Origin: a virus
Taxonomy: Duplodnaviria > Caudoviricetes
Direction: 5' to 3' (one strand)
Virus record (IMG/VR): IMGVR_UViG_3300021958_000023
Coordinates: 1 to 64,000 of that record
Length of the DNA stretch: 64,000 bases
Every line of letters begins with the position of its first letter. Positions within the stretch are counted from its first letter, which is position 1. The translations under genes were made by a program, and so were the position numbers. Positions 28,084 through 50,027 of the stretch are shown here, piece by piece. The notes beneath the pieces were generated by a model. That model ran no database searches. It had not been told where the DNA came from and saw only the letters and a program-made list of their open reading frames with translations.

Positions 28084-28112
28084 ATTATAAAATATTTTTA
28101 ACCAATAAGCAA
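28084..28112 (-). promoter_or_regulatory. sigma70-like promoter of RNA-C
   Basis: TTGCTT-N17-TATAAT. Confidence 0.75.
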
Positions 28113-28114
28113 AC

Positions 28115-28286: not shown

Positions 28287-28292
28287 TTATAT

Positions 28293-28321
28293 ATAATACA
28301 AAAACTTTAACCATTAAGCAA
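28293..28321 (-). promoter_or_regulatory. sigma70-like promoter of RNA-B
   Basis: TTGCTT-N17-TATTAT. Confidence 0.7.
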
Positions 28322-28323
28322 CT

Positions 28324-28563
28324 AAAAAGTTGATGGGGAGGATTCTCGCGCCTCCCCAGACTTTGACATTCGAGCACGGGTCTTTGGTTGACTAGCCTTC
28401 TCTACTTTGTCTTAGTCTATACGCGGTGGAATTGTCGATACCACAGAACGCTGTTTCTATCGTATGAAACTAGTACGACTGATAATATTGCTTACGACTA
28501 GGGGCAGACAAACCTACCGTCGCGAGCTCGGTGAGTTGCAGCTAGGCTTCTCGCTCAATCAGT
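28324..28563 (-). ncRNA. Structured ncRNA, about 240 nt (RNA-A)
   Basis: Own promoter; 3' hairpin GGGGAGG/CCUCCCC then a U-run; no ORF. Confidence 0.55.
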
Positions 28564-28569
28564 AAATAT

Positions 28570-28598
28570 ATAATATAAAATTTTTAAGCGCGAAGCAA
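28570..28598 (-). promoter_or_regulatory. sigma70-like promoter of RNA-A
   Basis: TTGCTT-N17-TATTAT. Confidence 0.7.
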
Positions 28599-28599
28599 T

Positions 28600-28806
28600 T
28601 TAAAAATTATTATAAATTGTAGTTGCCCTGTCGCTAAATGCTATATTATAAACCTCTTCAAACCCGTCTTCTCGCATATAGGCTTCTTCGTTATGCCAGA
28701 GTCGCTTAATATAGCCATCATAACTAGTATAGGCTATATGGTCAGAAGTAATATAACCTTTGACCATATAGAATATTCTGTGCATCTCTTTATGACTAGT
28801 CTTCAT
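28600..28806 (-). CDS. Hypothetical phage protein
   Basis: FYMVKG...SYDGY.KRLW.NEEAY.REDGFEE motif. Confidence 0.6.
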   Translation of the reverse strand: MKTSHKEMHRIFYMVKGYITSDHIAYTSYDGYIKRLWHNEEAYMREDGFEEVYNIAFSDRATTIYNNF

Positions 28807-33121: not shown

Positions 33122-35547
33122 TACTTGTCCTCAATTTGAGCTTTTAGTTCTTTTATAGCTTGAATCAGTAGAGGAACTACTCGACCATAGTCTACAGATA
33201 GATAACCATCATCCCTTTCTTTTACTGCTTCTGGTAATACTTCTTTCAATTCTTGTGCTATCACACCAACATCATGACCTTTTAGATGTCCATAGTGAAG
33301 ACCTGCTTCGGAAGCATCCCAATCAAATTCAACACCTTGTATTTGATCTATTTTATCAAGCGCAGAATCAATAGATTTTACGTTGTGTTTCAAACGGTAA
33401 TCTGAAGTATTAAATGCCGAAACATCGCCACCTGCATGAATTGCTCCTTCAACTCCTAAACCACCTTGTGTGATAATTATTGCACCTGTATCTTTAGAAG
33501 TAGATGCGGTGGTGTTTGTTACAGAAAGAGAATCAGATTCAAGAGAAGTGAAGTTACCAGTTCCTTGTGATGCAGCACCAATATTAGTTCCATCAATTGC
33601 ACCGCCATTAATATCTACAGTAGAAATAGTAACTGTTGTACCGTTAAATGTAAATGTAGAAGCGTCTTGTAATTCACCATTAGTACCGGCATAAACAACT
33701 CTTCCAGAAGTTAAGTCTGCAACATTAGCTGAAGCTACTTTTAGTTGAGTTCCTTGTTTAATATGAACATCACCACTTCCATTAGGCGATAAAAGTATAT
33801 CACCATTTGTGTCTGTAGAGCTTATAGTTCTGCCATTAAGTTGTAATTGATCAACACGAATGTCTGTGGCAACAGAGCTAGTACCGATAGTAACACCATC
33901 AATAGCACCCCCATTAATATCAACAGTTTGAGCAGTAAGAGTTGTTCCATTAAAAGTTAAATCTGCGTCAGTTACAAGCTCACCAGAAGTTGTTGTATAG
34001 ACAACTCTACCACTAGTTTGTCCAGTTACAAACACATTTGGAGATCTCAAATCTCTTTGTGGTAAAACATCTCTAGCATAAACATCTTGATAACCAGTAA
34101 CTGAAAGAGATCCTGCAGCTGTACCATCATCAGTAGTGCTAAAAGCAGCCCAACCATCATTTGCTTCATCCCAGATCCATGCCATATTGTCTACAGAAGG
34201 ACGATAAACTAGTAATCCTGCATCATAACTAGCAGGAGCAGACTGATTATTAGCAATAACAATAAAAGGATCTTGTACTAAAAGGTTAGTAGCATCAGCT
34301 GTAAAAGTAGAACCCTGAACTGTGAAATCACCTTGAACAAGCACATCTTGTTCAAAAGTTTTATCAACAGTAAAGTTTTGCGAACCTGAGTGAATAGCTG
34401 TAACATTGTCTTGAACAGTGTTTAATGCAGTCTTAGTAGCAAATGTAGTGTTAGCATACGATCCTGCAGTGTCTACAACTGCTCTTACAACTGTTACATT
34501 ATTTTGAACTGAGTTTACATTAGCAACTTGATCAGTGTGTAGAGTATCAATTCTTGAACCAATTGGAGTTAGATTACTTTGAACACTATCAATATTAGTA
34601 TTCGCTGTTGACGCAAAATAGTCTAAGTTTGCCTTAACAAGATTGATAGATGTATTAGCAGAATCTAAACCAAAGGTTAAAGAGTTTAAAGTTGTATTAG
34701 TAGTAGAGGCATAGTGATGTAAGTTAATCTGAACTTTACCTGCAGCAACATCTTGAGATAATGTTGCCCCTACAATAACAAGATTACCGTTAATTCTTAA
34801 GTTACCATTAATTTGAAATTGAGTATTAGGAACAATACCGCCAGGACCAATAATGACTTGGTCTCCAACCTCATCATTAGCTACATATCTGAAACCATTA
34901 TCACCAACAGTTAACGACTCAGTAATAGTAACAGTATTAGCTCCTTTAATAGCTCCATACATTGTAATATTTCTAAGCTGACTTGCAGGAGATCCTATAT
35001 CCATATAAGATTGAAGAACCGTGATTCCATAATCAGGATCAAAACCATATGTACCAAAATTACGATCTGGAATAATAGAACTATTGGCAGTTAGTATACG
35101 ATTATATTTATAACCATCGCTAAAAAATGCCGCACTATGTGCATGATCTACAGCAAAGTAACCATTATAAGTATCAGCAGGTGGAAAAGCATTATTACTG
35201 GTGAAAGCTGTGCCAAATATCATACGAGCAGTAGTAACAAAAGCGTTACCGTTGTCAGTGATAAATGTCAAACCACCAGTAGAAATTGAGGCATTATTTA
35301 GAATAGGACTATCAATAACAGGAGATCCATTAATTCTAGTTCCAGGGCTCATGTATAGATTTGCATTAATAGTAGCAGGCACACCAATAGGCTCATTAAG
35401 AGTAAGCCCCTCAATGGTTACTGTTGTTATATTTACATTTGATAGACTGGTTTGTACAGTTGCATCACTGATTCCAAGGTTATCTATAGCCCCAGAAATA
35501 TTGTTTGAACCTGTACCACCCAAGGAAACGGGAATTATGGTTGCCAT
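33121..35547 (-). CDS. Long tail fibre protein with C-terminal peptidase S74 intramolecular chaperone
   Basis: DINGGAIDG repeats; SDYRLKHNV...GVIAQE...VDYG..VPLLIQAIKEL; GAGG RBS before ATG 35547. Confidence 0.88.
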   Translation of the reverse strand: MATIIPVSLGGTGSNNISGAIDNLGISDATVQTSLSNVNITTVTIEGLTLNEPIGVPATINANLYMSPGTRINGSPVIDSPILNNASISTGGLTFITDNGNAFVTTARMIFGTAFTSNNAFPPADTYNGYFAVDHAHSAAFFSDGYKYNRILTANSSIIPDRNFGTYGFDPDYGITVLQSYMDIGSPASQLRNITMYGAIKGANTVTITESLTVGDNGFRYVANDEVGDQVIIGPGGIVPNTQFQINGNLRINGNLVIVGATLSQDVAAGKVQINLHHYASTTNTTLNSLTFGLDSANTSINLVKANLDYFASTANTNIDSVQSNLTPIGSRIDTLHTDQVANVNSVQNNVTVVRAVVDTAGSYANTTFATKTALNTVQDNVTAIHSGSQNFTVDKTFEQDVLVQGDFTVQGSTFTADATNLLVQDPFIVIANNQSAPASYDAGLLVYRPSVDNMAWIWDEANDGWAAFSTTDDGTAAGSLSVTGYQDVYARDVLPQRDLRSPNVFVTGQTSGRVVYTTTSGELVTDADLTFNGTTLTAQTVDINGGAIDGVTIGTSSVATDIRVDQLQLNGRTISSTDTNGDILLSPNGSGDVHIKQGTQLKVASANVADLTSGRVVYAGTNGELQDASTFTFNGTTVTISTVDINGGAIDGTNIGAASQGTGNFTSLESDSLSVTNTTASTSKDTGAIIITQGGLGVEGAIHAGGDVSAFNTSDYRLKHNVKSIDSALDKIDQIQGVEFDWDASEAGLHYGHLKGHDVGVIAQELKEVLPEAVKERDDGYLSVDYGRVVPLLIQAIKELKAQIEDK

Positions 35548-35634
35548 CAGTACCTCACAAAAATTCTTGTATAGTGTCATAATACAAGAATTAATCAGGT
35601 TTGGCAATTGGTATTTTTGCTAATTTAGGTATTA

Positions 35635-37542: not shown

Positions 37543-38082
37543 CTATATTTTTGTTTCTGCTCTCATACCTGGAACTCCATACTGCCCTCTGAGTAATATA
37601 TTAAAACTAATCGTTTTTCTTACCTTACTAGTTACATTTTGCTTAACAAAATGAGGTAACCAGCTAGGAAATATAATAAGTTTATTAGGTAATGCTTGAC
37701 TAAAAGGTAGTATATTATTGTAACGAGCATTTAACTGAAAACTAGACGCAGCAGGTCGGGGATCAATGAATATTGTAGGTTCTCCGTCTGTTATGTAATA
37801 TATACCACTAAATATAGAGTTAGGATGTACATGAATAGGGTGATCTTTTCCTAAGTCATTTACATTACACCACATTTCTGTAATATCTATTTCATATTTT
37901 GTTTCAACTTGTATGTCTTTTAGTATCTCTTCTACATAGCTTATTATTGTTTCCTGTAGTTTAGTATGAGAAACTGATGCCCCATCTTCTAAGTTAGCTG
38001 ACGAAATAAAATTAAAGTTTTTATCACTAAGAACGTGTTTCCACTCATAAACTATGGTAGGAAAAAGAATATTTTTTTCCAT
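37543..38082 (-). CDS. Putative 2OG-Fe(II) oxygenase (TIGR02466-like)
   Basis: FPT, HVHPNS.FSGIYY, IFPSWLPH.V, R.TISFN. Confidence 0.85.
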   Translation of the reverse strand: MEKNILFPTIVYEWKHVLSDKNFNFISSANLEDGASVSHTKLQETIISYVEEILKDIQVETKYEIDITEMWCNVNDLGKDHPIHVHPNSIFSGIYYITDGEPTIFIDPRPAASSFQLNARYNNILPFSQALPNKLIIFPSWLPHFVKQNVTSKVRKTISFNILLRGQYGVPGMRAETKI

Positions 38083-38083
38083 A

Positions 38084-38632
38084 CTAAACCCTACTTGCAG
38101 CAATCATATTAGGTATTTCTGAAGTAATTGCCATCTTTTTGTGTTTTTTATATTCTAGTTCCATCTTTTCTTGATCAGGTAAAAAAGGATTTAGAAACAC
38201 TTCACGAAGTTCTTTGTAAAACATTTTAAACTCTTTACCGTGTGGTTGAACATAGTGCATATGATGAAATCTTTTATGGTTGTATTGTGCTGCATGAGCC
38301 ATTTCATGAGTGATATGGTGTAATAGTTTATGCTCAAGATTATTAGTAAAGAAACCTCCAATTACAGGATCTTTATCAAATGAAGCATATTCATATACCC
38401 GACGAGGAGCGTCATAGTTTTCATCAGGAATTGCAACACTCATAGCGATTGAAATAACAGGTCCTCCGTTTCTCCATCCACCACGAGAACAACGACGCCT
38501 CTTTGACCAATCAAGTTTACACTCTACAAGTGCAAACTTTTCAGCACTAGAGAATCGAGAATACTTGTGAAACCACTTTTCAATATCATTCACATATTGA
38601 TCTGCTAGTTCATTCCAATGTCTACGATTCAT
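38084..38632 (-). CDS. SprT-like zinc metalloprotease
   Basis: HEMAHAAQ...PHG.EFK. Confidence 0.7.
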   Translation of the reverse strand: MNRRHWNELADQYVNDIEKWFHKYSRFSSAEKFALVECKLDWSKRRRCSRGGWRNGGPVISIAMSVAIPDENYDAPRRVYEYASFDKDPVIGGFFTNNLEHKLLHHITHEMAHAAQYNHKRFHHMHYVQPHGKEFKMFYKELREVFLNPFLPDQEKMELEYKKHKKMAITSEIPNMIAASRV

Positions 38633-38847
38633 TTACCTATATCCTTTACATTATTAGCTGTTACAATAGTATAAGCTCCTTTATTAAATGCAGGAGCAGT
38701 TGGAAATATCTTTTTATCTTCCCCACAGTCAAGACACGTTTTATAACCTAGTTTTCTTCTCTGATAAGAAAACTCCTCACCACAATCTATACAGTATACT
38801 GCAAAATTTTTCTTGCCAATATCTGGTTTTAGTGCTATTATAGTCAT
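38629..38847 (-). CDS. Zinc-ribbon phage protein
   Basis: CIDCG...CLDCG...NKGAY. Confidence 0.65.
   Translation of the reverse strand: MTIIALKPDIGKKNFAVYCIDCGEEFSYQRRKLGYKTCLDCGEDKKIFPTAPAFNKGAYTIVTANNVKDIGK
38813..38841 (+). promoter_or_regulatory. Promoter of the radical SAM operon (leaderless start)
   Basis: TTGCCA-N17-TATTAT ending 6 nt before ATG 38848. Confidence 0.65.
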
Positions 38848-39432
38848 ATGTATTTACCTAACCACTTACAAAATTTTTCTACACAGTTGTACGAAAGATA
38901 TAAAAATATAAACCCAGTTGAGATAATAACAAATTATCACTTCATAAGAGATGGAAGAGTTTTCTTCATTGAAAATGGTGAAGAGAATATGGTATTTCCT
39001 GACTCTTATAAAAATACTATATCAAAAATTAAAGCTCATAGCAAGAATACATTTAAAGTAGAAGGTTTTGAAAAGTTTGATGAATATCTTGCAACTGTGT
39101 GTGATAGTAAAACTAAAGATGAATATATAGACTGTCATTTGTATTGGGGTAAAGTGGGAAAATCTAGTTTTATAACCCATGTTGATCCTTACGATGTTGT
39201 AATAGTAATGATTTCTGGCACTAAAAAAATGGTGTTTCCTGATAATAATGAAGAACAAGTACTGAATCCAGGAGATACTGTATATATTCCAGGAAATAAA
39301 GCACACTATGCTAATAACGTAACAGAAAATATTTCTCTAAGTTTTGGTATTAGAAAGTACTATAAATACATAGATTTAAAACTCCAATCATTGCAGATGG
39401 CAGCTGATGCATCATATAACAGTATATCTTAA
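38848..39432 (+). CDS. Cupin/JmjC-like (Cupin_4) hydroxylase
   Basis: H.Y....SSF.THVDPYDV....SGTK...L.PGD.VYIP....H. Confidence 0.8.
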   Translation: MYLPNHLQNFSTQLYERYKNINPVEIITNYHFIRDGRVFFIENGEENMVFPDSYKNTISKIKAHSKNTFKVEGFEKFDEYLATVCDSKTKDEYIDCHLYWGKVGKSSFITHVDPYDVVIVMISGTKKMVFPDNNEEQVLNPGDTVYIPGNKAHYANNVTENISLSFGIRKYYKYIDLKLQSLQMAADASYNSIS

Positions 39433-40459
39433 AACTACAGAAACTTGTCAGTTAAATTGTAAACATTGTTTTACCAACGGGATAAACGGTAGAAAAATAT
39501 ATTTTAACCCTGTTAAGACAGTAGAGTGGATAAATAAATTAAAAACAGCTTATCAAAACAACTCTATACATTTTGAGTTTCACGGTGGAGAACCGTTTTT
39601 AGCCCCAGTTTCGGATATGAAATATGTTGTTGAAAATACAAAACAACTGTGGAACAACGCAAGTTATGGAATGACAAGTAATCTAACTCTTAATCTGGAC
39701 GAAGAAAAAACACAATTTATATTGAAAGATTTAAATGGTATAATAGGCACTTCGTGGGATAAAAGTATCAGATTTACTAACATAAAACAAAAAGAGTTAT
39801 GGGAAAATAATGTAAAATATTTAAAGTCTTTAGGTGTTTATATAACACTATTTGTAAGTGTTACTAAGGAACTTTGCAATACTGATCCTGAAACTATTAT
39901 AGAATATTTTAATAGTTTAGGAGTAGATGAAGTAGATTTTGAAAGACTAACCAATCACGGAAATGCAAAACTACATCCTGAAATTTTTCCGACTAATAAA
40001 GAACAAGATACTTGGTTTTTAAACTTATACAAGTGTAAAACAAAAAGAGAGTGGAAAGATAGTTTTATAGACTCAATAGTAAAAACAAGACTAGCAGGTT
40101 CTCAAACAGCTACTTTTTGCAGAGATTGTGAACAAAAATTATTTACTGTAAATGCAGACGGAACAATTAGTGGATGTCCTAATGCAGCTCCAGAAGAGGT
40201 TTATGGTAATATTGAACAAGACATTTGGGATTTACTTTGGAATCCAAAAAGAAAATATATAATAGCTTGTGAAGCAGCTAGAGATGAAAGATGTTATAGC
40301 TGTGAAGTATTTGATTTATGTGGGAGTGGGTGTCATCAGCTAGACTGGGATGAAACTCATTGCCCCTCTCCTAAAAGTTTATTTAAGCTATTAAAACAAA
40401 CACCTATAAAAGAAATAAAAGAAGGAGCGTATTATGCCAATTCAAAACACTGGGGATGA
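39407..40459 (+). CDS. Radical SAM/SPASM maturase 1
   Basis: CQLNCKHC, FHGGEP, C..C...GCP, C..C.....C...C. Confidence 0.92.
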   Translation: MHHITVYLKTTETCQLNCKHCFTNGINGRKIYFNPVKTVEWINKLKTAYQNNSIHFEFHGGEPFLAPVSDMKYVVENTKQLWNNASYGMTSNLTLNLDEEKTQFILKDLNGIIGTSWDKSIRFTNIKQKELWENNVKYLKSLGVYITLFVSVTKELCNTDPETIIEYFNSLGVDEVDFERLTNHGNAKLHPEIFPTNKEQDTWFLNLYKCKTKREWKDSFIDSIVKTRLAGSQTATFCRDCEQKLFTVNADGTISGCPNAAPEEVYGNIEQDIWDLLWNPKRKYIIACEAARDERCYSCEVFDLCGSGCHQLDWDETHCPSPKSLFKLLKQTPIKEIKEGAYYANSKHWG

Positions 40460-41036
40460 AATTAGTAAAGCAGCAGTTTTACAAAGATTTAATGAAGTCA
40501 TGCGTGACAATATTAATCCTGTTATTGATGTAGGTTCTGGAACACCTTTTACCACTGGAACATACAGGGAGTTGACAAATACAGGGGATGGAGGTATTCC
40601 TATTAATCATGTAGGAGCGCCTACAGTATCTCCTGCTACAACCGGGGGTCTAACAGACACTATTATAGACGCTGCAGGATTAGCCAATTATTTAAGAACT
40701 CTTACTAGAAATTATAGCCAAGTAAGAAAACTAAATTGGAGACTGAGATTTAATAAAACAGGATATCCTAGTGGTAATGGTAATCTGGTTTTAGAACAAA
40801 CAACTACTGACTACATTCATCTAAATGCTGAAACATATAAACAAACAGTTACAGATAATGCTACAACCTATAATATTGAAGAAGGCGATCTAATTGATGC
40901 ATCTGACTTTGAAAGCTATATAGCAGATTTATACTCACAGTGGAGTACTTTAAAAGAAAATACAGTAACAATCTATGTTGATACTTGTCATGCAAGTTGT
41001 CATTCAAACTGTCACGGTTCTAGGGGAAGAAGATAA
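40434..41036 (+). CDS. Candidate modification substrate, virion-like protein with C-terminal (CHxx)3 tail
   Basis: Ends TCHASCHSNCHGSRGRR; AAGGAG RBS; lies among radical SAM genes. Confidence 0.7.
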   Translation: MPIQNTGDEISKAAVLQRFNEVMRDNINPVIDVGSGTPFTTGTYRELTNTGDGGIPINHVGAPTVSPATTGGLTDTIIDAAGLANYLRTLTRNYSQVRKLNWRLRFNKTGYPSGNGNLVLEQTTTDYIHLNAETYKQTVTDNATTYNIEEGDLIDASDFESYIADLYSQWSTLKENTVTIYVDTCHASCHSNCHGSRGRR

Positions 41037-41734
41037 TGAAAGTAATTAAGACTAAGGCACCAATAGATGTTGAATATTTACAAGAATATTTTTCATCTGA
41101 AGAAGAAATAATGTTTGAGTTAATGTATTATGATAGTGATATAAAAGGAAGAACTTTTTTTAACTATGTAGCAAATCTAGACATTAAGTTCAAACTGAAT
41201 TTTTATGAAACCACACAAGAAGAAAGGTATGAGTTATTAGATCTTTACCTTAATTCTAACTCAATAATTTCCTGTAAAGAACTTGAATTGGCATTAACGT
41301 ATTTAGTACTTAAATATAATAACTGTAATGTAGATGACTTATACTCTTTTTCAATTCTTAGTCCGGAGTATGCTGAAAAATTTATAACAGAAAAAATGAA
41401 TAAACTGATGACTGTAACAGAATTTTTAGAATCTTTACCTATTACGACTCTCTCTTTTGTATCCTCTTTAAAAGAGTTTGTAAATCAAGAATTGAAAAAT
41501 TATGATGTAGTAGAAGATACAGATATAATAGGTAAAAATATAATAAATCTGATTAATAATCCTTTTATATTTCAACTGTATGAAACTAGTGGAAGTAGAA
41601 AAAGATATTTTAAGTATTACTCTGAAGAGTATATTTATGATGAAAAAAATCTATACGGCTGGATGACCGACAACGACGTACCCCTCTTAGTTTTTGTATC
41701 AGGAATAGCAGCCGGTGTTCAACCTAGTAAATAA
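41036..41734 (+). CDS. Hypothetical protein (radical SAM operon)
   Basis: TAATG coupling to the upstream gene. Confidence 0.7.
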   Translation: MKVIKTKAPIDVEYLQEYFSSEEEIMFELMYYDSDIKGRTFFNYVANLDIKFKLNFYETTQEERYELLDLYLNSNSIISCKELELALTYLVLKYNNCNVDDLYSFSILSPEYAEKFITEKMNKLMTVTEFLESLPITTLSFVSSLKEFVNQELKNYDVVEDTDIIGKNIINLINNPFIFQLYETSGSRKRYFKYYSEEYIYDEKNLYGWMTDNDVPLLVFVSGIAAGVQPSK

Positions 41735-42851
41735 TGTATATTTAGAATATAATTTTTGTTATACCTCTGAAATACCTAAACTATTAGTAGGGTATGAAGA
41801 GCCTTTGCCAAACACTTGGAATTATTTCAAAGACGCTGATAGTTTATTTGAAAGTAATACTTTAAAAAATATAGATAAAAGTACAGAAATAGTAGTTTTA
41901 GCAAACGAAGATGCTTATAACAAAATATTAATTACATATTTAAAATCAATCCTACCAAACTGCATAGAGCAATCTGCGTATCATTTTTATAAACTTCTTT
42001 TACAAAAACATATCTATTTACACGGAAAATCATGTTTAGCACATGATGACGGATCTACTAATCTAAAATCTCCTTGGAACTCATTAACATTATTATCGTT
42101 AAAGGAATTTAGTAGTATATATAAAACTTGTAGTAAACACTTACTAGATGATTTCTATACAAAAGGAGCTTGTTTAGAACTACACTTAGCTAGTTATTTA
42201 GCAAATACTAAATATAACCATAAAGATATATTATATAAAAAACTATATAATATAGTTGCTGATACAGTATTAAACGAATTAACTTATTGGAAAATGAATG
42301 TAATGTGTCAGTTATTTGAGTTAGGGGATTTAGTTGATAGCATAGAGTATGGCTCTCATTTGTATGAAAATGCAGTTTATGAAGATTTAAAACTACCAAA
42401 AGAATACGATTGGTTAATGGATGGAAATATAAAAGCCTACCCTGACCTAAAGTATGTTAAAGAAAACTATGATCTAAAAACTCTATTTAGACTTTATAGA
42501 AAATCTGTAATGAAGTATGGTCACAATGGATTTTATAATAGTGAAGTTTTAATGGAAAAGTTCATTGAAGGTAACTTAGGATTAAGAGACATAATAAATA
42601 TCGATATTAACACAATTTATGCAGGTGGAAATATTGGAGAATATCAATATCAAGATAGAACTACTCACTACTTATTAAGATATTTCTATCTCTTAGCAAC
42701 AGAAAAAAGATACGATAAACTATCTGAGTATTCTTTAGAAACTACTGACAAAGTATTTAAACCTTTTATAAATGAATATAAAAGAAATAAAAAAATTCCG
42801 AAAGAATGGAATTTAACAGACCACCACAGTTTTAGAGAAGGCTATGTATAA
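41715..42851 (+). CDS. Hypothetical protein (radical SAM operon)
   Basis: 378-aa ORF overlapping its neighbours. Confidence 0.7.
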   Translation: MFNLVNNVYLEYNFCYTSEIPKLLVGYEEPLPNTWNYFKDADSLFESNTLKNIDKSTEIVVLANEDAYNKILITYLKSILPNCIEQSAYHFYKLLLQKHIYLHGKSCLAHDDGSTNLKSPWNSLTLLSLKEFSSIYKTCSKHLLDDFYTKGACLELHLASYLANTKYNHKDILYKKLYNIVADTVLNELTYWKMNVMCQLFELGDLVDSIEYGSHLYENAVYEDLKLPKEYDWLMDGNIKAYPDLKYVKENYDLKTLFRLYRKSVMKYGHNGFYNSEVLMEKFIEGNLGLRDIINIDINTIYAGGNIGEYQYQDRTTHYLLRYFYLLATEKRYDKLSEYSLETTDKVFKPFINEYKRNKKIPKEWNLTDHHSFREGYV

Positions 42852-43833
42852 CACAGTCATAGATAAAAAAGCGTCCACTCTGGGAGAGGTTATTGTAACA
42901 CTGTTTGAACACTGTAATCTTGCGTGTAGTTTTTGTTCTCAAAATCATAATTCATTTGAGGGTGTGGAATCCATCCCAGAAAAATACTTTGCGATAAAAA
43001 GCGTCTATGAAAACTTACGCTCACAAAATAAAGAACAATTTTCCTTTCATTTTATGGGCGGAGAGATTTTGAGTGATTCAGTTTCAAATCAAATTTTGAA
43101 TAAAATTGAAGATTTAATTCTTAGATGTCAACAATCATTTGAAAACAGTGAATTTCTAATAACTTCTAATATGATATGGAGTGATAGAGATAGGGTAAGA
43201 CAAATGCTAGATAGGCTAGAAATTAAACTAGCAGTCAGCTATGATCCTGCGGGTCGCTTTAATACTACTCAACTAGAACAGTTTATGTCTAATGTTGAGT
43301 ATTTTAAAGATTATATCACCACAGTAAATATAATTCTAACAGCTCCTAATATTTATAAATTTTTAGGTAATGATATAACAGGTTTTGAGTATCTATATGA
43401 TAACTTTAATATATATTTTGATTACTATACTCCTGAAAAAAACGCTAGTATAAACTGTCCTACAGATGTAGAGTTATTAGAAATATTCAAATATTTGTCT
43501 AGTAATTATCCTAAAGTAGCACCTATAAACAAGTATTTATCTGGAGATACTAGGAAAAATTTAACCTGTCAAAGAACAAAGGTAATAGCTGCTAATGGAG
43601 AAATAGGTCACTGTAATTTATTAGTTGGAGGCAACTATAGAGCATTAGCACATGATAGTAGAGATAAGATGGAAGCTAAATGGATAGAAGGATTTAATTG
43701 CTTAATGTGTGATCATTTTACTAGATGTGGGTTGGGGTGTTTTCAAGAAAACCATATTTTACCTGAAAAAAGTACTATGGAGCATTGTTGGATTAAAGAC
43801 TATTGGGAATGGTTAGATGGAACTTATAATTAA
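42844..43833 (+). CDS. Radical SAM/SPASM-type enzyme 2
   Basis: CNLACSFC, FMGGE, C-terminal CLMCDHFTRCGLGC. Confidence 0.9.
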   Translation: MYNTVIDKKASTLGEVIVTLFEHCNLACSFCSQNHNSFEGVESIPEKYFAIKSVYENLRSQNKEQFSFHFMGGEILSDSVSNQILNKIEDLILRCQQSFENSEFLITSNMIWSDRDRVRQMLDRLEIKLAVSYDPAGRFNTTQLEQFMSNVEYFKDYITTVNIILTAPNIYKFLGNDITGFEYLYDNFNIYFDYYTPEKNASINCPTDVELLEIFKYLSSNYPKVAPINKYLSGDTRKNLTCQRTKVIAANGEIGHCNLLVGGNYRALAHDSRDKMEAKWIEGFNCLMCDHFTRCGLGCFQENHILPEKSTMEHCWIKDYWEWLDGTYN

Positions 43834-44890
43834 ACCAACAGAACGTTGTAACTTTAAATGTACCTTTTGCTCTAGTACAAAAATTGCTGATTCTAAATCT
43901 GTAGAATTAGAGCATGAAAAAATATTTGCTTTTTTAAGAAGATTTCCTGATACTAATACTATTATTGTAAACGGTGGTGACCCTCTAATGATGACACCTG
44001 ATTACTATTGGAAAATAATAGATTACTTAAATGAACACGGCTTGAATACTACTATATCTTTAACGACTAATCTATGGCCGTTCTATAAAAATCCGACTAA
44101 ATGGATTGATCTTTTGAGTCATCCTAGAGTAGGGGTTTGTACCTCTTTTCAATATGGAGGAGGTAGATTAAAAGGAGATTTTTCAGAGTTTACTGAAGAA
44201 GACTTTTGGAATGTTTCAGATAAAATGTTAGAACTCGTAGGTTACCGTCCTGATTTTATCTCAGTAATAACAAAAGAAAATGAAGATCAAGCTATTGACA
44301 ATGTAAGATTAGCTAAAAAAATGGGAGTAGTGTGTAAACTAAACTATGCTGTTGCAAGCGGTCCAGAAATTAGATTTCTTAATGGAATTAAGATGGGATT
44401 AGAAAACTATACCTATCTACTTGCAGATATATATGAAATTTATCTTAAAATTTATAAGCTAGGACTTGCTGATTGGGAATATAACACTACTCAACTACTA
44501 AAAAGATTTTCTTCTAATACTACTTGTCCACAAAACAGACGTTGTGATGAAAATATTAGAAACCTAAATCCAGGAGGTGACTACTATTCTTGCGGAGCAT
44601 TTGGAGATGACAAAGAGTATGAAATAGATTTTGATAAAGAGATGAATCAAGATAAAGTAGAAACTCCTTTACAAAAGTCTATAGAACTACTATCTTTAAA
44701 ACAATCTTGTTTTACTTGTCCTATGTTTAAGATTTGTAATGGATGTAAAAAAACTACTAGTGATTTGAAAAGATTAAATTTAGTAGAAACACACTGTAAA
44801 AAAATGAAGAAACTAGCGCCTGACATAATAGAAATATGTAATTTAAAAACAAAAGTAACGGAGTATATAGATGAGTCAATATACACATAG
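43817..44890 (+). CDS. Radical SAM/SPASM-type enzyme 3
   Basis: IIKPTERCNFKCTFC, NGGDP, CP....C...YSC, CFTCPMFKICNGC. Confidence 0.92.
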   Translation: MELIIKPTERCNFKCTFCSSTKIADSKSVELEHEKIFAFLRRFPDTNTIIVNGGDPLMMTPDYYWKIIDYLNEHGLNTTISLTTNLWPFYKNPTKWIDLLSHPRVGVCTSFQYGGGRLKGDFSEFTEEDFWNVSDKMLELVGYRPDFISVITKENEDQAIDNVRLAKKMGVVCKLNYAVASGPEIRFLNGIKMGLENYTYLLADIYEIYLKIYKLGLADWEYNTTQLLKRFSSNTTCPQNRRCDENIRNLNPGGDYYSCGAFGDDKEYEIDFDKEMNQDKVETPLQKSIELLSLKQSCFTCPMFKICNGCKKTTSDLKRLNLVETHCKKMKKLAPDIIEICNLKTKVTEYIDESIYT

Positions 44891-45668
44891 AAAACTATGG
44901 CCTACCCCTATTTTATTAGGAAGTATTGATAAAGAATTAGCCAAAGATTTATTTAATTATATACTGAATAAGTATCATAATCCTGATGAAAAAACAGAAG
45001 TATTTAATCTGTTTTCTATCGGTGAGCCTCTTTTAGATAATCTATATAAAAACCATATTGTTCCTGCTACAAAAGAATATATTAAAAATAATTTATTTCA
45101 GTCTAACCATTATGAAATAAATTCTTATGCGTGGGCTCACGTATTGCCACAAGGACAAAATGTAGGTATTCATAATCATCCTAATAATCATATAAGCGGT
45201 ACTATATGGTTAAACGATCATGATAGTCATCTTTTAATGGTCGATCCAAAAGGTAATTCTAATATGATGGATTTTGGATATCTAGATTTAGAAATGTTAA
45301 CTAAAATGGGTATGACTGTTGGGAATGATGAAATTAGACATAACCATACTTCTAGATATAACGAGTTTGGAAGACAGATGAATAATAGCACACTAGACTT
45401 CACAGGACTTTTTGGTGATTATGTTGATACATTTGATAAACCAACTAGATCAGTAAATCCAACTAACATCACTATTAAACCAGAGCTTGGTAAGTTTGTA
45501 TTATTTCCATCTTGGGTATGGCACGAAGTAGAACCAAACCAATCTAAAATGCCTAGAATTAGTATTTCTTGGGATACTAGAATTACTCCAAAGATAAAAA
45601 AAGAGCATAATATTCATCATGAACAAGACATTAGAATATTAGGAGATGTTCTTGATATACAGAACTAA
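44871..45668 (+). CDS. Putative 2OG-Fe(II) oxygenase (TIGR02466-like, with insertion)
   Basis: WPTP, HNHPNN.ISG, LFPSWVWHEV, RISISW. Confidence 0.85.
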   Translation: MSQYTHRKLWPTPILLGSIDKELAKDLFNYILNKYHNPDEKTEVFNLFSIGEPLLDNLYKNHIVPATKEYIKNNLFQSNHYEINSYAWAHVLPQGQNVGIHNHPNNHISGTIWLNDHDSHLLMVDPKGNSNMMDFGYLDLEMLTKMGMTVGNDEIRHNHTSRYNEFGRQMNNSTLDFTGLFGDYVDTFDKPTRSVNPTNITIKPELGKFVLFPSWVWHEVEPNQSKMPRISISWDTRITPKIKKEHNIHHEQDIRILGDVLDIQN

Positions 45669-46071
45669 GAAAGCTGATATTAATGATTTACAAATATTAG
45701 TAGCTTTATCATATAATATGATAAAAGATGAGCGGTATGAACGAGATGATTTAGTTTATATTATAAAAAATGATATAATTGAAATACTATATTTCAATAA
45801 TATAGCTATTGGATACTATACCGTAATTAATCATGAGAAGGGTAAGTACTTAGAAACTATATTAATTGATAAAAAATATCAAGGAACAGAAGCAGTATAT
45901 CAATTATGTAATAAAGCAGTTAACCCTATTAATGGAAATCCTTTATGGGGTTTAAGTAGATATAAACGAGTTGATATATTATTGAAAAAATATGGTTTTG
46001 AACCAAAAGAATATGAAACAATTAAAGGAAGAAAGTACAGATGGTGGATAAACCGTTTTCAGTCTCAATAA
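45646..46071 (+). CDS. GNAT-like acetyltransferase
   Basis: IGYY...YLETILIDKKYQG...LLKKYGF. Confidence 0.6.
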   Translation: MFLIYRTKKADINDLQILVALSYNMIKDERYERDDLVYIIKNDIIEILYFNNIAIGYYTVINHEKGKYLETILIDKKYQGTEAVYQLCNKAVNPINGNPLWGLSRYKRVDILLKKYGFEPKEYETIKGRKYRWWINRFQSQ

Positions 46072-46958
46072 ACCCTAGTTACTTTTGTAATTTTAGATGT
46101 GATTTTTGTTATCTAACTCCTGAACAACTAGGAGACCAGAAAAAAATTGATCTTAAAAAATTAGATAAATTACTTTCTGAAGTGCCAAAAATAGATCATA
46201 TAGATTTATACGGCGGAGAAATAGGAGCATTAAAAAGGAGTTATTATGAAGACCTTATCAAAACAATACGCAATTGGTATTCTGACACTATCAACATTAA
46301 TACTAATTTTTCTATGCTTGACGACAGATTCTTCGAGGATGGAATCTCTCTTTCCGTCTCATATGATTTTTCAGCAAGAGAAAAATCTAATCTAGTATAT
46401 AATAATATGTTAATGAGCCCTGTGCCTCTCTCGGTTCTTATCTTAGCTTCAGCTGAAGTAGTAAAAATGGATGTAGACTATATGATTAAACAATTAAATA
46501 TGTGTAAATCAGTAAAGTCAGTTGAAATAAAGCCATATTCTATAAATCAAGCAAATGCTCATTTAGTAACTCATAGAGAGTTTGAGTTATTTGTGTCTCA
46601 GTGGATTGATAGTCCTATAGAAAAACGGTTTGAGTTTCAAAACTTGAGAAGAATTGAACGAAGTGTCAAGAAGGAGTATAGTGCTTGGTCTGATGATCAT
46701 ATCTATATTACTCCTAATGGAAAGTTTGCTGTATTAGAGTTTGATCAAAACGATAGAGAATATTTTATGGAATTACCGAGTTACAACGCATTTGAACAAT
46801 GGGCGTGGAGAGAGAAAAGAACACTATCTACAATATGTCAAAACTGTAGTTGGGTAGGACATTGCTTAACAGAACACTATAGACAAGTAAAAGATTTAAA
46901 ACATAGTTGTAATGGTTATATAAATCTTTTAACAAAGTACCAACATGATTTTATATAA
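46041..46958 (+). CDS. Radical SAM enzyme 4
   Basis: CNFRCDFC, YGGE, C-terminal CQNC.....C..H...SC. Confidence 0.9.
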   Translation: MVDKPFSVSINPSYFCNFRCDFCYLTPEQLGDQKKIDLKKLDKLLSEVPKIDHIDLYGGEIGALKRSYYEDLIKTIRNWYSDTININTNFSMLDDRFFEDGISLSVSYDFSAREKSNLVYNNMLMSPVPLSVLILASAEVVKMDVDYMIKQLNMCKSVKSVEIKPYSINQANAHLVTHREFELFVSQWIDSPIEKRFEFQNLRRIERSVKKEYSAWSDDHIYITPNGKFAVLEFDQNDREYFMELPSYNAFEQWAWREKRTLSTICQNCSWVGHCLTEHYRQVKDLKHSCNGYINLLTKYQHDFI

Positions 46959-47454
46959 AGACGTTTTAGAAAATGGTTTTGCTTTCAGTGAAATTAATCT
47001 AAATCCTATTGCTAAAGATTTAGAATCTTTAGAGTTTTATGAAAACGAAGATAGAAAACCAGGAGTTGAAGTAAGCTGGTCTACTTTTGGTATGCCTAAA
47101 AAAGTTAATAACTACTTAATACATAGTTTAAAAAACGTATGTGATGATTACATAGGTTCCTTAATAGATAAAATAGACACATTTGAAGCGTATAAAACAG
47201 AAGTAAAAGAATATACACAGCTTCACAGCGATTCTTCTTTTGGAGGGCTGATACAAATTATGGTCTACTATATTAAGGGAGATTTAAAGGGTAGAAACTT
47301 TTTATATGGAAAAGTAAGCAGAATAGATAGTATAGTTCCTTATACAGGACTAGTTATAGTATCTGATCAACTAAATAAAGAGTGGTTACATGGCACTAAC
47401 CCACTAATAAATCCGTGTTTTAATTTATGTATAACAGCGATAACTCCAAGATGA
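46945..47454 (+). CDS. 2OG-Fe(II) oxygenase-like protein
   Basis: LHSD...Q.MVY...G..F...WLHG (HxD...H triad). Confidence 0.65.
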   Translation: MILYKDVLENGFAFSEINLNPIAKDLESLEFYENEDRKPGVEVSWSTFGMPKKVNNYLIHSLKNVCDDYIGSLIDKIDTFEAYKTEVKEYTQLHSDSSFGGLIQIMVYYIKGDLKGRNFLYGKVSRIDSIVPYTGLVIVSDQLNKEWLHGTNPLINPCFNLCITAITPR

Positions 47455-48134
47455 ATAAAAAAGAATTTTATAAGAAAGAACATTTTTCTAAAAAGAACTG
47501 GTTACATGACAATGGTAGAGTAAACGCTACAGTATCAGGAAATAACTGGGTAGGAGTATCTATATCTCCTTATATGAAAGATTTTAAGTCTCAAGTAGAT
47601 CCAGGAATTTGGCCGTTGGTTGAGATACTAACTAAAAAAGGATATTTAACTTGTTCATCTTGTGAAGGGCATGATTGGATGGAAGAATCTTTTGTAGTAG
47701 TGTGTTTTGGGTCTAGAGATTCAAGAGATCAATTTGCTAAACAAGTAGTAAAAGCACACATACCTCAATACCGAGTATTCTATCAAGAATCACAGACTAA
47801 TATAAATCTTTATGATCCATTCAATAATTATCATGAATTAATGGATGATCCTACAATGGATGAAACTCAGAATTGGTTTAAAGTAAAAGATAAACTATAT
47901 TTTACAAAAGTTGAAGACGATATACCAGAAGAAATTATAGAAAAAGAAGCAGAAAACTGGAATCACTGTTTTGGTAGAAAATATAAACGATGGTACTATT
48001 GTCGACTTCTAATTGGGGGTGCAGTACTAAACGGTAAGACTCCCACAACACTATGTGTACACTGGACTCGTTATTTTTGGATAAAAAAATTAGCTAGTTT
48101 TATTGAAAGAAAGGTATCTAATGGCTTTGACTGA
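47427..48134 (+). CDS. Hypothetical protein with TYW3-like SSCxG motif
   Basis: VDPGIWPLVEIL..KGYLTCSSCEGH. Confidence 0.5.
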   Translation: MYNSDNSKMNKKEFYKKEHFSKKNWLHDNGRVNATVSGNNWVGVSISPYMKDFKSQVDPGIWPLVEILTKKGYLTCSSCEGHDWMEESFVVVCFGSRDSRDQFAKQVVKAHIPQYRVFYQESQTNINLYDPFNNYHELMDDPTMDETQNWFKVKDKLYFTKVEDDIPEEIIEKEAENWNHCFGRKYKRWYYCRLLIGGAVLNGKTPTTLCVHWTRYFWIKKLASFIERKVSNGFD

Positions 48135-48771
48135 GAAATTTAGAGAAATACAATATGATTCTGATAATCTTATAGAGTATTCTTACCATGCAAACGATAC
48201 ATCTAAAGAAGTATTAGAACTAAAAAATAAACTTTACACAATTTTTAAAGAAGAAAGTGCTGCTGACTTAGCTTTTAAACACGATATGATCAGCTATCAT
48301 TCTAAAAATGGAACTACTTATGAAGAAGATGCTATTGTAGTTGTTTATTCTGAAAAATGTCCTTTTTATTTAAGAGAAGAGTTTAATCTAAAAGATTTTA
48401 ACTCTTTAGACTTTTATGCAATAAAATATTTCTTAAATAGTAAAAAAAGAGTATTAAAAACGTATGATGCAGATATGTATAATTATGAAATACCCCAACT
48501 CCCTCCTAAATCAGCTATCGGTAATCAATTTGGTGTTGGAAGAACACACGGAATTGAAAAAGAGTATAGAGATGTTTACTTTTTTAACTCTAATGATATG
48601 ATGGTAGGGTATTTTTGGGGAGATTGGATTCCTAAAATAGAAGAACCATATAAAAATCCCGCAACTAAATGTTACGGGATTACTTACGAAGAAGGAATCA
48701 AAGATGTTTTAAAGTTAAAACGTTACCTGTTTCCTTTTCATTATGAAATGTCTGATCTAACTTTATTATGA
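48121..48771 (+). CDS. Hypothetical protein (last gene of the operon)
   Basis: ATG overlaps the upstream gene; converges on the gene ending at 48766. Confidence 0.65.
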   Translation: MALTEKFREIQYDSDNLIEYSYHANDTSKEVLELKNKLYTIFKEESAADLAFKHDMISYHSKNGTTYEEDAIVVVYSEKCPFYLREEFNLKDFNSLDFYAIKYFLNSKKRVLKTYDADMYNYEIPQLPPKSAIGNQFGVGRTHGIEKEYRDVYFFNSNDMMVGYFWGDWIPKIEEPYKNPATKCYGITYEEGIKDVLKLKRYLFPFHYEMSDLTLL

Positions 48772-49332
48772 TTTTCTCTCAATAGTAAAAGAAACAGGGG
48801 GTGGATTAGGAGCAATATTAAAACTAATAATAGCTTTTGGTATATCTTTATCTATATGTCTATTACTAGTATGTCCTATAAAAGATGGAAATATTATCAC
48901 ATCTCCTTCGTCCACTGTTGGAGTTACAGAATCTATATTACCATCATAAGGAGTTCCAAAAGGGCTATAAAAACTAGTACCCCCACTAGGAGGAACATCA
49001 ATATACAGAATAGCACTATAGCCTAGAGCTCCATGATTATGATAAGGATGAGATCCTCCATAGGCATAGTGTTGAAACCACATCTCACTAATTATAAGTT
49101 TTTCTAACCCTACCTGTTCTTTCCATTCAAATAGTTCTTTTTCTATAGTTTGAAACACAAATTTTGTGTATTGCTTTTTACTAAGGTTTTCCCAAAAGTC
49201 TGTAGCTATACCTGTATTTTCATCTACACCTATTGCAGGTAGTAACGTAAGCAATTCTTCTTTTTTATTTTTCCAATCAGAAACTCTAAATCTCCAATAA
49301 GGAACTCTAAATAAGTCTCTTTGTTGTATCAT
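48766..49332 (-). CDS. Putative 2OG-Fe(II) oxygenase (TIGR02466-like)
   Basis: MWFQ, HNHG..GYSAILY, IFPSFIGH, IISFN. Confidence 0.85.
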   Translation of the reverse strand: MIQQRDLFRVPYWRFRVSDWKNKKEELLTLLPAIGVDENTGIATDFWENLSKKQYTKFVFQTIEKELFEWKEQVGLEKLIISEMWFQHYAYGGSHPYHNHGALGYSAILYIDVPPSGGTSFYSPFGTPYDGNIDSVTPTVDEGDVIIFPSFIGHTSNRHIDKDIPKAIISFNIAPNPPPVSFTIERKS

Positions 49333-50027
49333 ATATCGCCTATCATTGGAAAAATTTCTGCAATTACTTTTGCACAAGCGTGTGCAATTTCCATGTGTTC
49401 TAATTGTGTTCCATTAGCTCCACGTAGATCGATATAGTGAATCCATGAACGTAAAGTACCGTTCATATATAAACGTGTTTTAGTCAATCCTTCTGGTAAC
49501 ACAACACGAGCCTGTTCTTTAGCAATACCGTTTTCTATAGCCCAATTGTATGCGTTACTAGCTGCTAGAATAACTTGATCTTGTTTAGACAACCATTGTT
49601 GTTGTAAAGCAGCTTGTTCTTTGCTTTCTAACTCACTGTCTTCTAAAGAGATACTATTTTGTCTATTCTTTTTATCTTGTAATCTCGCATCTCTACGAGT
49701 AAAAATTTCTCCTAAACTTTTAGGATTAGCGTAACGCTGACTAAACTCTTGAAATGAAAAAGAACGATGACGCACAATTTGATGTGCGATATCACGAGTA
49801 GTTTCAATTTCTAAACACACATTTACCATCTCAAAAGGAGACCAATGTTTATGTTGCATTAAATAGTATAGTAGCTTTTCAGAAGTTTCTTCATTGATTT
49901 GATTTCCTGGATTAGAAACTCTTGCACAATAGGCAACTAGTCCTTTTATATCTCTTACACTACTGTTAGTATCAAATAGTTCTTTAGATACTGTACTATA
50001 AGAAACTAATTTAACTTTCGTATCCAT
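49329..50027 (-). CDS. thyX: FAD-dependent thymidylate synthase
   Basis: HWSPFE, RHRSFSFQEFSQRY, AKEQAR.VLP, GTLRSW.HY. Confidence 0.96.
   Translation of the reverse strand: MDTKVKLVSYSTVSKELFDTNSSVRDIKGLVAYCARVSNPGNQINEETSEKLLYYLMQHKHWSPFEMVNVCLEIETTRDIAHQIVRHRSFSFQEFSQRYANPKSLGEIFTRRDARLQDKKNRQNSISLEDSELESKEQAALQQQWLSKQDQVILAASNAYNWAIENGIAKEQARVVLPEGLTKTRLYMNGTLRSWIHYIDLRGANGTQLEHMEIAHACAKVIAEIFPMIGDI

Follow-up and report, generated by a model that had tools for sequence, protein, structure and literature searches.

The window analysed here, a stretch of 64,000 nucleotides, comprises positions 1–64,000 of a 173.5-kb virus record rated complete (IMGVR_UViG_3300021958_000023) and belongs to a marine, T4-like myovirus encoding PhoH and ThyX. 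Between positions 38848 and 48771 it carries a module of 13 co-oriented plus-strand open reading frames (ORFs; g01–g13), in which four radical S-adenosylmethionine (SAM) enzymes, here called rSAM1–rSAM4, accompany g03, a 200-residue protein ending in CHASCHSNCHGSRGRR directly before its stop codon (40986–41036). We find that this C-terminal sequence, hereafter the tail, is almost always encoded together with the enzymes and that an orthologue of g03 is part of phage particles, which supports the view that the module probably modifies the tail of a virion protein.

With the longest ORF taken in each case, every gene of the module overlaps the next by 1–32 nt; because two module starts are GTG/TTG, the true overlap may be smaller in places. 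The GC content of the module is 0.29–0.31, against 0.34–0.44 outside it, and nearly all genes at 10294–38847 and all genes from 48766 on lie on the minus strand. The four radical SAM genes (g02, g06, g07 and g10) are the sole PF04055 matches in the whole 173.5-kb genome. Baseplate, tail-fibre and virion PHROGs are found at 125–9854 and 30257–35607 of the window, the tail-fibre genes of the second interval lying 3 kb upstream of the module. The original prediction, made from this DNA alone, had described a run of 13 consecutive overlapping plus-strand genes, opposite in orientation to its flanks and more AT-rich, with a 200-residue protein bearing the tail, and all of this was reproduced here. 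The features of the module are as follows.

38848–39432, plus strand: g01, JmjC_2-type cupin, probable Fe(II)/2-oxoglutarate (2OG) protein hydroxylase (PF08007)
39407–40459, plus strand: g02, rSAM1, radical SAM/SPASM enzyme (TIGR04085, CxxxCxxC)
40434–41036, plus strand: g03, 200-aa tail protein, proposed substrate (C-terminal tail)
40986–41033, plus strand: coding sequence of the 16-residue tail, (CHxS)x3-RGRR (one match in the genome)
41036–41734, plus strand: g04, 232-aa core protein of no recognisable family (phrog_20767)
41715–42851, plus strand: g05, 378-aa divergent core protein (iterated hidden Markov model, HMM)
42844–43833, plus strand: g06, rSAM2, SPASM-like Cys-rich C-terminus (family matches, clade support 0.996)
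43817–44890, plus strand: g07, rSAM3, radical SAM/SPASM enzyme, the most conserved member (PF04055, E 2.8e-10)
44871–45668, plus strand: g08, 2OG-Fe(II) oxygenase of the 2OG-FeII_Oxy_5/TIGR02466 type (PF13759, E 4.4e-19)
45646–46071, plus strand: g09, 141-aa lineage-specific protein, earlier labelled GNAT-like (no family match)
46041–46958, plus strand: g10, rSAM4, shorter CxxCx5C...C C-terminus (family matches, clade support 0.996)
46945–47454, plus strand: g11, 169-aa lineage-specific protein (no family match)
47427–48134, plus strand: g12, 235-aa accessory protein with weak TYW3 resemblance (PF02676, E 0.042)
48103–48771, plus strand: g13, 222-aa accessory protein (no family match)

The tail is the hallmark of g03. 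Scanning IMG/VR with a degenerate DNA pattern for C-H-x-x-C-H-x-x-C-H-x-[ST]-R-x-R-R (about 41 bits), we detected it in at least 119 contigs; in 141 of the 143 viral matches listed a stop codon follows directly, which the pattern does not require, and the reversed pattern gave 0 matches in 401 Bdellovibrionota genomes. The tail occurs far beyond chance. Its consensus over 151 unique proteins is [VIL]-C-H-[SAT]-S-C-H-[ST]-S-C-H-[GST]-S-R-G-R-R, with the Ser residues and the RGRR end conserved as strongly as Cys and His, and 107 of the 151 proteins have no Cys outside it. The family forms at least 161 clusters at 90% identity, all annotated 'hypothetical' and without a Pfam domain, and its members are 125–364 aa long, with a poorly conserved body and a nearly invariant tail. 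In the AlphaFold2 (AF2) model of g03 (predicted template modelling score, pTM, 0.76) the tail is disordered, and the best BFVD match of this model is gp170 of the Agrobacterium phage Atu_ph07 (E 3.6e-8), so the bodies of the two proteins are related as well. The same fold was matched in three 504–660-aa paralogues, larger proteins of one uncultured myovirus (Myoviridae sp. ctijX18; A0A8S5USJ8, A0A8S5USJ7 and A0A8S5USV2, E 1e-5 to 4e-4). Nothing usable was returned for the model from the PDB (Foldseek), a wide VIA-align search or the ESM Atlas (best Z 3.9); matches to TssK and phage baseplate proteins were below noise, and no known fold can be assigned.

Substitutions within the tail are restricted. 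Scans of IMG/VR in which each His position could also be Asn, Asp, Ile, Val, Tyr or Phe found two variants in the entire database, CHSSCYYDCHGSRGRR and CHLNCHGNCYGTRSRR, both with Tyr and both beside radical SAM genes, and a third variant, CHYSCFTSSCHFSRGRR, retrieved through g04 as described below, has Phe for His. Two residues after His, the tail may have S, N, A, Q, K, R, D or T, and no replacement of Cys by Ser (TCN) or Thr at the three tail positions was found in IMG/VR. At position 3 of the last repeat the 151 proteins have G, S, T, N or A but no Pro, and none of them has an acidic residue at +4 after Cys. Two Bacteriovoracia metagenome-assembled genomes (MAGs; loci L141 and L147) encode four CHxS repeats, CHSSCHSSCHGSCHGSRGRR, and at one further locus (L208) the last Ser is replaced by Ala (CHGARGRR).

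Around the tail, the gene set is conserved. About 80 viral loci share the syntenic order cupin, rSAM1, tail, g04, (g05), rSAM2, rSAM3, (2OG), rSAM4. Loci chosen by their tail were cross-checked by retrieving loci again with a g04 profile, which is independent of the tail. Among the 79 loci so retrieved that had enough upstream sequence, a tail-ending ORF lies directly upstream of g04 in 72 and within 3 kb, with g05 between, in 5 more; the remaining two comprise one locus with the variant tail CHYSCFTSSCHFSRGRR and one without a tail (77–78/79 in total). The co-occurrence of the tail with radical SAM genes, on which the original prediction had let itself be judged, therefore holds in pattern-retrieved and g04-retrieved loci alike. 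A cupin gene stands directly upstream of rSAM1 in about 48 loci, the g05 family was found with an iterated HMM in 65 loci including Bdellovibrionota, and g08-family 2OG oxygenases occur in 33 module loci; g12 is present in 4 loci, g09 recurs at one locus only (L026), g11 at one other locus, and g13 has homologues at L020, L026 and in a Halobacteriovoraceae chromosome module (L155). In a second architecture, two tandem tail proteins of about 126 aa are followed by 3–8 radical SAM genes, and HMM searches place g04 and, at the g05 position, an ORF of about 366 aa there as well; in 6/6 of the tandem-tail loci checked, the next gene upstream has the same strand and encodes a tail-fibre or virion structural protein. 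Based on synteny, g04 retrieval, the tandem architecture and the g05 HMM results, the core of the module is the tail protein, g04, g05 and at least three radical SAM enzymes, usually with the cupin, while g09 and g11–g13 are lineage-specific. Three genes had initially been set down as unknowns; they indeed lack a recognisable family, but two of them, g04 and g05, are core components. The tandem-tail loci include L003, L024, L032, L063, L082 and L083, where the two tail proteins are paralogues encoded just downstream of a large tail-fibre gene, and several of the radical SAM enzymes there belong to none of the window's four clades (51 representatives unassigned).

Carriers of the module include T4-like, Rak2-like and phiKZ-like phages, in which it usually lies beside tail-fibre or baseplate genes. 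Among cultured phages it is present in Agrobacterium phage Atu_ph07 (gp172–gp165, tail CHSSCHASCHNSRSRR) and Ralstonia phage RSL2 (ORF066–077, tail CHSSCHTSCHGSRGRR), both with baseplate and virion genes upstream, and rSAM1 orthologues are found in RSF1, RsoM3USA, the FLC phages, Burkholderia phages FLC6, FLC8 and SURPRISE13, Sinorhizobium phage Phosso and Pseudomonas phage pPa_SNUABM_DT01; megablast with the module found no match among cultured phages. Papers on the cultured carriers list these genes merely as cupin, Fe-S oxidoreductase or radical SAM, and radical SAM cassettes have been noted in the host-recognition cluster of pelagimyophages (PMC7029224).

The virion proteome of Atu_ph07 places the tail protein in the particle. 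Gp170, of 31.89 kDa, was detected there with 8 unique peptides and 35% coverage (PMC6102473, Table S5). The translated tail-protein gene of this phage has a mass of 31.89 kDa and the masses of gp176 and gp177 match too, so the gp numbering agrees; gp170 is the g03 orthologue by its tail, its position and its standing as best fold match. The suggestion that the proposed substrate is a retained, possibly virion, protein is thus supported by this phage, and since RSL2 ORF068 is annotated just as hypothetical, the virion location is documented for one phage only. Gp170 was found in gel fragments 1–9 and most abundantly in fragment 1, where proteins of 127–139 kDa peak, while the peak is fragment 2 for the 117-kDa sheath, fragment 6 for the capsid protein and fragments 7–8 for proteins of 29–31 kDa; among 131 proteins, two others below 40 kDa peak in fragment 1, with 1–2 peptides each (PMC6102473). 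The products of the neighbouring genes, gp165–169 and gp171–172, are absent from the proteome list (PMC6102473).

All four predicted radical SAM genes encode members of that superfamily. Each product has CxxxCxxC within its first 30 residues (11–28; at 14–21 in rSAM1) and matches Radical_SAM/Fer4_12 and phrog_1802; the PF04055 matches range from E 2.8e-10 to 5.9e-5, with g07 alone passing the Pfam cut-off and the other three backed by Fer4_12 and phrog_1802 (E 1e-27 to 1e-55). C-terminal auxiliary-cluster cysteines, which had been assigned to all four, are present as full sets in two of them. Against the SPASM model TIGR04085 (cut-off 27 bits), rSAM1 scores 36.4 bits and rSAM3 just under the cut-off at 25.0, and their orthologues keep 8 and 8–9 invariant auxiliary Cys, respectively; rSAM2 is weak, at 15 bits, and in rSAM4 the model was not detected, with only the CxxCx5C...C pattern there. 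In a FastTree phylogeny of 191 representatives, the four enzymes of the window fall into four clades, each with phage and bacterial members, with support of 1.0 for rSAM3, 0.996 for rSAM2 and rSAM4 each, and 0.33 for the fourth; mean column identity in rSAM3 is 64%.

For rSAM1 and rSAM3 the best family matches are to SPASM enzymes that modify peptides or proteins, all far below their cut-offs: the stronger, full-length ones are to PapB, anSME, DarE, DynA, YhhB, QhpD and FxsB. Mycofactocin and quinohemoprotein maturase models are among the weak matches, and QueE, MoaA and similar models align with the cluster-binding N-terminus only. Single radical SAM sequences retrieved nothing from the PDB with phmmer, profiles alone finding relatives; the rSAM1 profile matched anSME 4k37 over its full length (E 5e-6) and, with its N-terminal half, 8vpo (E 6e-9), a cyclopropyl synthase of a ribosomally synthesised peptide that is post-translationally modified (RiPP; PMC10878394). 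Since all named maturase families fail their cut-offs, the chemistry of these enzymes cannot be read from homology.

The oxidative part of the module stands partly as first described. The JmjC/cupin hydroxylase g01 belongs to JmjC_2 (PF08007, E 2.4e-11, 43.7 bits, cut-off 22), a family of ribosomal Arg/His hydroxylases, and it keeps the metal triad: H111, D113 and H153, together with K126, are invariant in 28 orthologues including those of Bdellovibrionota. Of two 2OG oxygenases expected within the module, g08 is a clear member of 2OG-FeII_Oxy_5 (PF13759, 69.2 bits, cut-off 27, E 4.4e-19; TIGR02466, 56.7 bits, just under the cut-off of 62.5), but the second, g11 (46945–47454), has no Pfam match even at E 10. 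The GNAT-like label once given to g09 finds no support, as no Pfam, NCBIfam or PHROG match appeared even at E 10. The same applies to the TYW3-like label of g12, for which PF02676 covers 28 of 211 profile positions (E 0.042, 13.6 bits, cut-off 27).

At 50% identity the g04 family has 625 representatives, of which 436 reach E ≤1e-10. The AF2 model of g04 is confident (mean predicted local distance difference test, pLDDT, 93); with it, neither Foldseek nor VIA-align found a PDB match (best Z 5.5 over 57 residues), the ESM Atlas yielded none either (template modelling score at most 0.31), and a feature search gave nothing usable. Judged from this model, g04 would have no assignable known fold, and its novelty as a fold is likewise unproven. 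The invariant residues of g04 are P, S, Y, N, G and N, with no protease-typical invariant Cys, His or Ser-His-Asp pattern, and a degenerate radical SAM enzyme was rejected by hhalign against the rSAM1 profile (probability 0.1%). In g05, which has no Pfam, NCBIfam or ESM Atlas match, E155 is invariant. Because both proteins are near-universal and the radical SAM enzymes have no N-terminal recognition domain, g04 and g05 are probably scaffold or recognition subunits; complex prediction of g03 with g04 (alignments A1 and A2) scored 0.01 and carries no weight either way. Four g04 homologues of 470–600 aa (P0188, P0190, P0191 and P0204) have N-terminal extensions of 200–330 residues; these are acidic and of low complexity, which rules out fusions of tail protein and g04.

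The module had been described as phage-encoded, and it is, but not exclusively so, since it is chromosomal in some Bdellovibrionota. In a scan of one prokaryote genome per species the tail was found 32 times, 20 of them in Bdellovibrionota MAGs; the other matches, mostly on low-GC contigs in unrelated bins, are probably phage DNA. Within the phylum, 9/401 sampled genomes (about 2%) have the tail. A 1.29-Mb Halobacteriovoraceae contig carries the full set (cupin, rSAM1–4, tail, g04, g05, g13 and 2OG oxygenases) between a serine dehydratase and a Mrp/NUBPL ATPase, with no capsid or terminase gene in the 20 kb examined around it. Identity to Bdellovibrionota orthologues is 51–59% for rSAM3 and 45–49% for rSAM4. 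A Peptidase_S74 (endosialidase-chaperone) protein lies beside the module in 2/3 Bdellovibrionota loci, and the prey-recognition adhesins of Bdellovibrio are S74-terminated fibres (PMC10769870). The location of the module in predatory Bdellovibrionota, twice next to pilin-like S74 fibre genes, suggests a role in attachment to, or entry into, Gram-negative cells.

Some features of these bacterial loci were not part of the gene set described so far. In two minus-strand ORFs (L155:2165–3406 and L156:6255–7292) the N-terminus, G-[IM]-S-L-[VL]-[QE], is like that of a type IV prepilin and the C-terminus is an intramolecular chaperone domain (Peptidase_S74); these proteins are pilin-fibre chimeras that may act as pilus tip adhesins. 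B12-binding radical SAM genes (about 575 aa; L156:17172–18911 and L157:7153–8880, both plus strand) lie inside the module and are absent from the phage versions seen. The Halobacteriovoraceae island also has a glycosyltransferase-like gene, and a clostripain-family ORF lies about 5 kb upstream of the module in L156.

In the window, two further 2OG-FeII_Oxy_5 oxygenases are encoded on the minus strand to either side of the module (37543–38103 and 48766–49377) and may or may not cooperate with it. Near them lie a SprT-like gene (38084–38632), a DksA/TraR zinc-ribbon ORF (38629–38847) and ThyX (49329–50027). Further away, at 26100–28800, the GC content is higher (0.44) and the sole ORF of at least 70 aa encodes 110 aa on the plus strand (27416–27748). 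For the T4 late promoter, the word TATAAATA shows no enrichment (10 observed against 9.2 expected), and none lies upstream of g01.

Taken together, the co-occurrence of tail and enzymes, the SPASM-type relatives of the latter and the virion orthologue support the post-translational modification pathway of the original prediction, and we favour a module that acts as a dedicated tailoring system, whose enzymes would cross-link or oxidise the tail on a virion protein of the fibre module. In this scheme, the g03 product would be made in the cytoplasm, where its disordered tail, (C-H-x-S)x3-R-G-R-R, would be processed by the four radical SAM/SPASM enzymes, the JmjC-type hydroxylase and the 2OG oxygenase. 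The tailored tail would be neither excised nor exported, and would remain on the folded body to be built into the tail-fibre or host-recognition module; in line with this, neither a protease nor an exporter was recognised in the 13 genes with Pfam or NCBIfam, as had been noted before, and g04 or g05 could hide one. The outcome may be a rigid cross-linked tip, possibly covalently reactive or linked between chains.

Most likely, three kinds of chemistry would contribute. Each H-x-S unit might be closed into a three-residue cyclophane joining the aromatic ring to C-beta, as in triceptides; HaaB, YhhB and HtkB are known radical SAM enzymes that join C2 of His to C-beta of the second residue after it (PMC11499958). 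H-x-S reads as a triceptide-type aromatic-X-X motif, and since the residue two after His varies, a C-beta cross-link fits better than a Ser-specific reaction. The three Cys could undergo thioether or formylglycine formation: as Cys is never replaced by Ser or Thr, reactions at sulfur (a thioether, for instance) or oxidation are likely, and the last repeat, C-H-x-S-R, resembles by its sequence the formylglycine motif of sulfatases, which is C-x-P-S-R. Finally, His or Arg residues may be hydroxylated; JmjC_2 enzymes are hydroxylases of protein Arg or His side chains, and either residue occurs three times in the tail.

Several points weigh against this interpretation. The modification itself is putative. 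Every named maturase family misses its curated cut-off by a wide margin, the radical SAM enzymes have no N-terminal recognition domain, and g04 has no similarity to known RiPP recognition elements. The His-to-Tyr replacements number two, with one Phe besides, and C to T is the commonest mutation. That gp170 peaks at the top of the gel may be due to an SDS-resistant oligomer and not to covalent links; smearing is frequent in that data set, and in RSL2 it is ORF065, not the hypothetical ORF068, that is annotated as a virion structural protein. The bacterial tail proteins have no signal peptide, so a surface role would need unconventional export. The pairing of oxygen-sensitive radical SAM enzymes with O2-requiring oxygenases in surface-ocean hosts is unexplained.

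The contrast between a poorly conserved body and a near-invariant tail would also suit a RiPP or cofactor precursor, with the g03 body as a long leader and the modified tail, or a piece of it, cut off as a small molecule such as a redox cofactor, metallophore, toxin or signal, comparable to PQQ from PqqA or to mycofactocin, derived from the MftA C-terminus. A C-terminal core site served by SPASM enzymes is also found in PqqE/MftC-type pathways, a mycofactocin model is indeed a weak match, and g04 and g05, lacking a recognisable family, could conceal a peptidase. We nevertheless regard this as unlikely: the body is a conserved folded domain (pTM 0.76) common to gp170, which is retained in virions at 35% coverage, the genes lie within fibre and baseplate modules, the invariant residues of g04 are not protease-like, and no recognisable peptidase or exporter was seen in the module or the scanned Bdellovibrionota flanks, save the L156 clostripain-family ORF. 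Nor does the unmodified tail make a convincing metal site, although Cys3His3 is a plausible one and phage spike tips bind Fe or Zn through His or Cys. Here the tail would bind a metal or an Fe-S cluster, for instance at a trimeric tip, and the enzymes would act on other substrates, such as a glycan, a lipid or other proteins of the host-recognition module, in keeping with the absence of Cys-to-Ser or Cys-to-Thr variants in IMG/VR and with the glycosyltransferase-like gene of the Halobacteriovoraceae island. His is replaced by Tyr, Tyr and Phe, however, and not by Asp, Asn or Cys; the Ser residues and RGRR are conserved like the ligands; the tail gene is wedged among at least three SPASM-like enzyme genes and inseparable from them across very different genomes; and no sugar or lipid radical SAM family is among the stronger matches (tetraether lipid synthase Tes, 25 against 450 bits). 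We consider such a division of labour improbable.

Much the least credible account is that the module serves nucleic-acid or cofactor chemistry, such as DNA or tRNA hypermodification or a deazapurine- or wybutosine-like base, with the tail protein an unrelated neighbour. JmjC enzymes include TYW5, ThyX adjoins the module and g12 has a weak TYW3-like stretch; radical SAM enzymes that modify DNA bases are moreover frequent in phages (PMC8989533). The clustering with QueE-type enzymes that the original prediction had named as contrary evidence did not emerge, as TIGR03963 reaches 16 bits, for rSAM2 only, against a cut-off of 260; MoaA aligns with the cluster-binding N-terminus only, TYW3 stays at E 0.042 in a gene found in just 4 loci, none of the kinases, glycosylases, transferases or PLP enzymes typical of base hypermodification is present, and the association with the tail is near-obligate.

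Compared with known maturases, the proposed tailoring system is close in its motif to the triceptide systems (HaaB, YhhB, HtkB, FxsB and Hxs), which likewise have near-C-terminal aromatic-X-X repeats next to SPASM enzymes. His is established there as a ring donor (PMC11499958), and the tail has three H-x-S units with Tyr and Phe variants; the module enzymes match the models of YhhB, FxsB, HxsB, AmcB and GrrM weakly, over the full length or in part. The scores are nonetheless distant (YhhB 45 against 445 bits, HxsB 35 against 370) and the repeats of the module add an invariant Cys. Triceptide systems use one or two radical SAM enzymes on a short peptide, whereas the module has at least four different ones and its substrate is a retained, folded protein of 125–360 aa that is phage-encoded and built into the virion. 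Tails with two or three H-x-S units notwithstanding, the module is not a His-Xaa-Ser system: HxsB (TIGR03978) scores 35.2 against 370 bits and HxsC (TIGR03977) 33.3 against 268, and since g03 and g04 match no NCBIfam model, no HxsA or HxsD counterpart was found.

With anSME, the module shares a protein substrate, a SPASM domain with two auxiliary clusters and the C-x-x-S-R spacing of the last repeat, and rSAM1 matches it over its full length (4k37, E 5e-6; TIGR03942, E 3e-15). The module differs in having three Cys and not one, no Pro, no sulfatase domain and no Ser-type variants, and TIGR03942 reaches 56.1 and 45.3 bits against 349. PapB/CteB and the CXXX-repeat family also have a C-terminal Cys at every fourth residue, and PapB is the best NCBIfam match of rSAM1, over the full length (E 1.4e-16). 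Unlike these, the module has no Asp or Glu acceptor at +4, no leader-recognition domain, no protease and no exporter, and the scores are 60.6 against 340 bits for PapB (NF047865) and 25.8 and 19 against 350 for CXXX-repeat (TIGR04115), its Cys spacing of four aside. The Hxs and CXXX-repeat maturase models, proposed at the outset as points of comparison, thus all remain below cut-off.

QhpD offers a precedent for a SPASM enzyme that puts several thioether cross-links into a retained small subunit, and TIGR03906 matches weakly over the full length (E 4e-9, 35.6 against 453 bits), but its substrate QhpC, a subunit of an enzyme in the periplasm, carries Cys-to-Asp/Glu links plus a quinone cofactor and has no phage or fibre context. 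Like the JmjC ribosomal-protein hydroxylases YcfD/RoxA of E. coli and NO66 and MINA53 of humans, g01 passes PF08007 and keeps the HxD...H triad and the Lys; it is much shorter (about 150–200 aa) and is without their dimerisation and winged-helix domains. Among virion cross-links, the HK97 capsid isopeptide chainmail and SDS-resistant tail-fibre trimers recall gp170, which after boiling in SDS migrates at a size well beyond that of its monomer, but the virion cross-links known so far are autocatalytic, whereas the module has at least six dedicated enzymes. It is not a RiPP system in the strict sense either, having a folded precursor of 125–364 aa, no peptidase or transporter family in the module and an orthologue retained in virions. 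The module belongs to no curated maturase family and can best be called a RiPP-like tailoring system that works at the protein level; in the open literature we found no published description of the tail or the module, but only annotation lists.

The carriers span at least 119 IMG/VR contigs and cultured jumbo phages of Agrobacterium, Ralstonia, Burkholderia, Sinorhizobium and Pseudomonas, and place the module in the host-recognition region of abundant marine myoviruses as well as in predatory bacteria. To our knowledge, small secreted peptides and, in a few cases, enzyme subunits are the described targets of SPASM maturases, and virus particles are not among them. If the tail is modified as proposed, this would add a new layer of virion maturation and new enzyme chemistry on a compact Cys/His/Ser motif, and the proposal is directly testable in cultured phages with tractable hosts. 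More tentatively, and with considerable doubt, unrelated phages and Bdellovibrionota might share an enzyme-built 'warhead', a radical SAM cross-linked and oxidised C-terminal peptide on a small fibre-associated protein, which, as part of the same tentative idea, might link covalently into the fibre or baseplate or react with the target envelope, and would be required for attachment or entry. Were this true, a virion structural protein would for the first time be seen to undergo post-translational modification by radical SAM enzymes, and two new folds, g04 and g05, would enter RiPP-like enzymology. A tail modified in the proposed way could be an attack device common to phages and bacterial predators.

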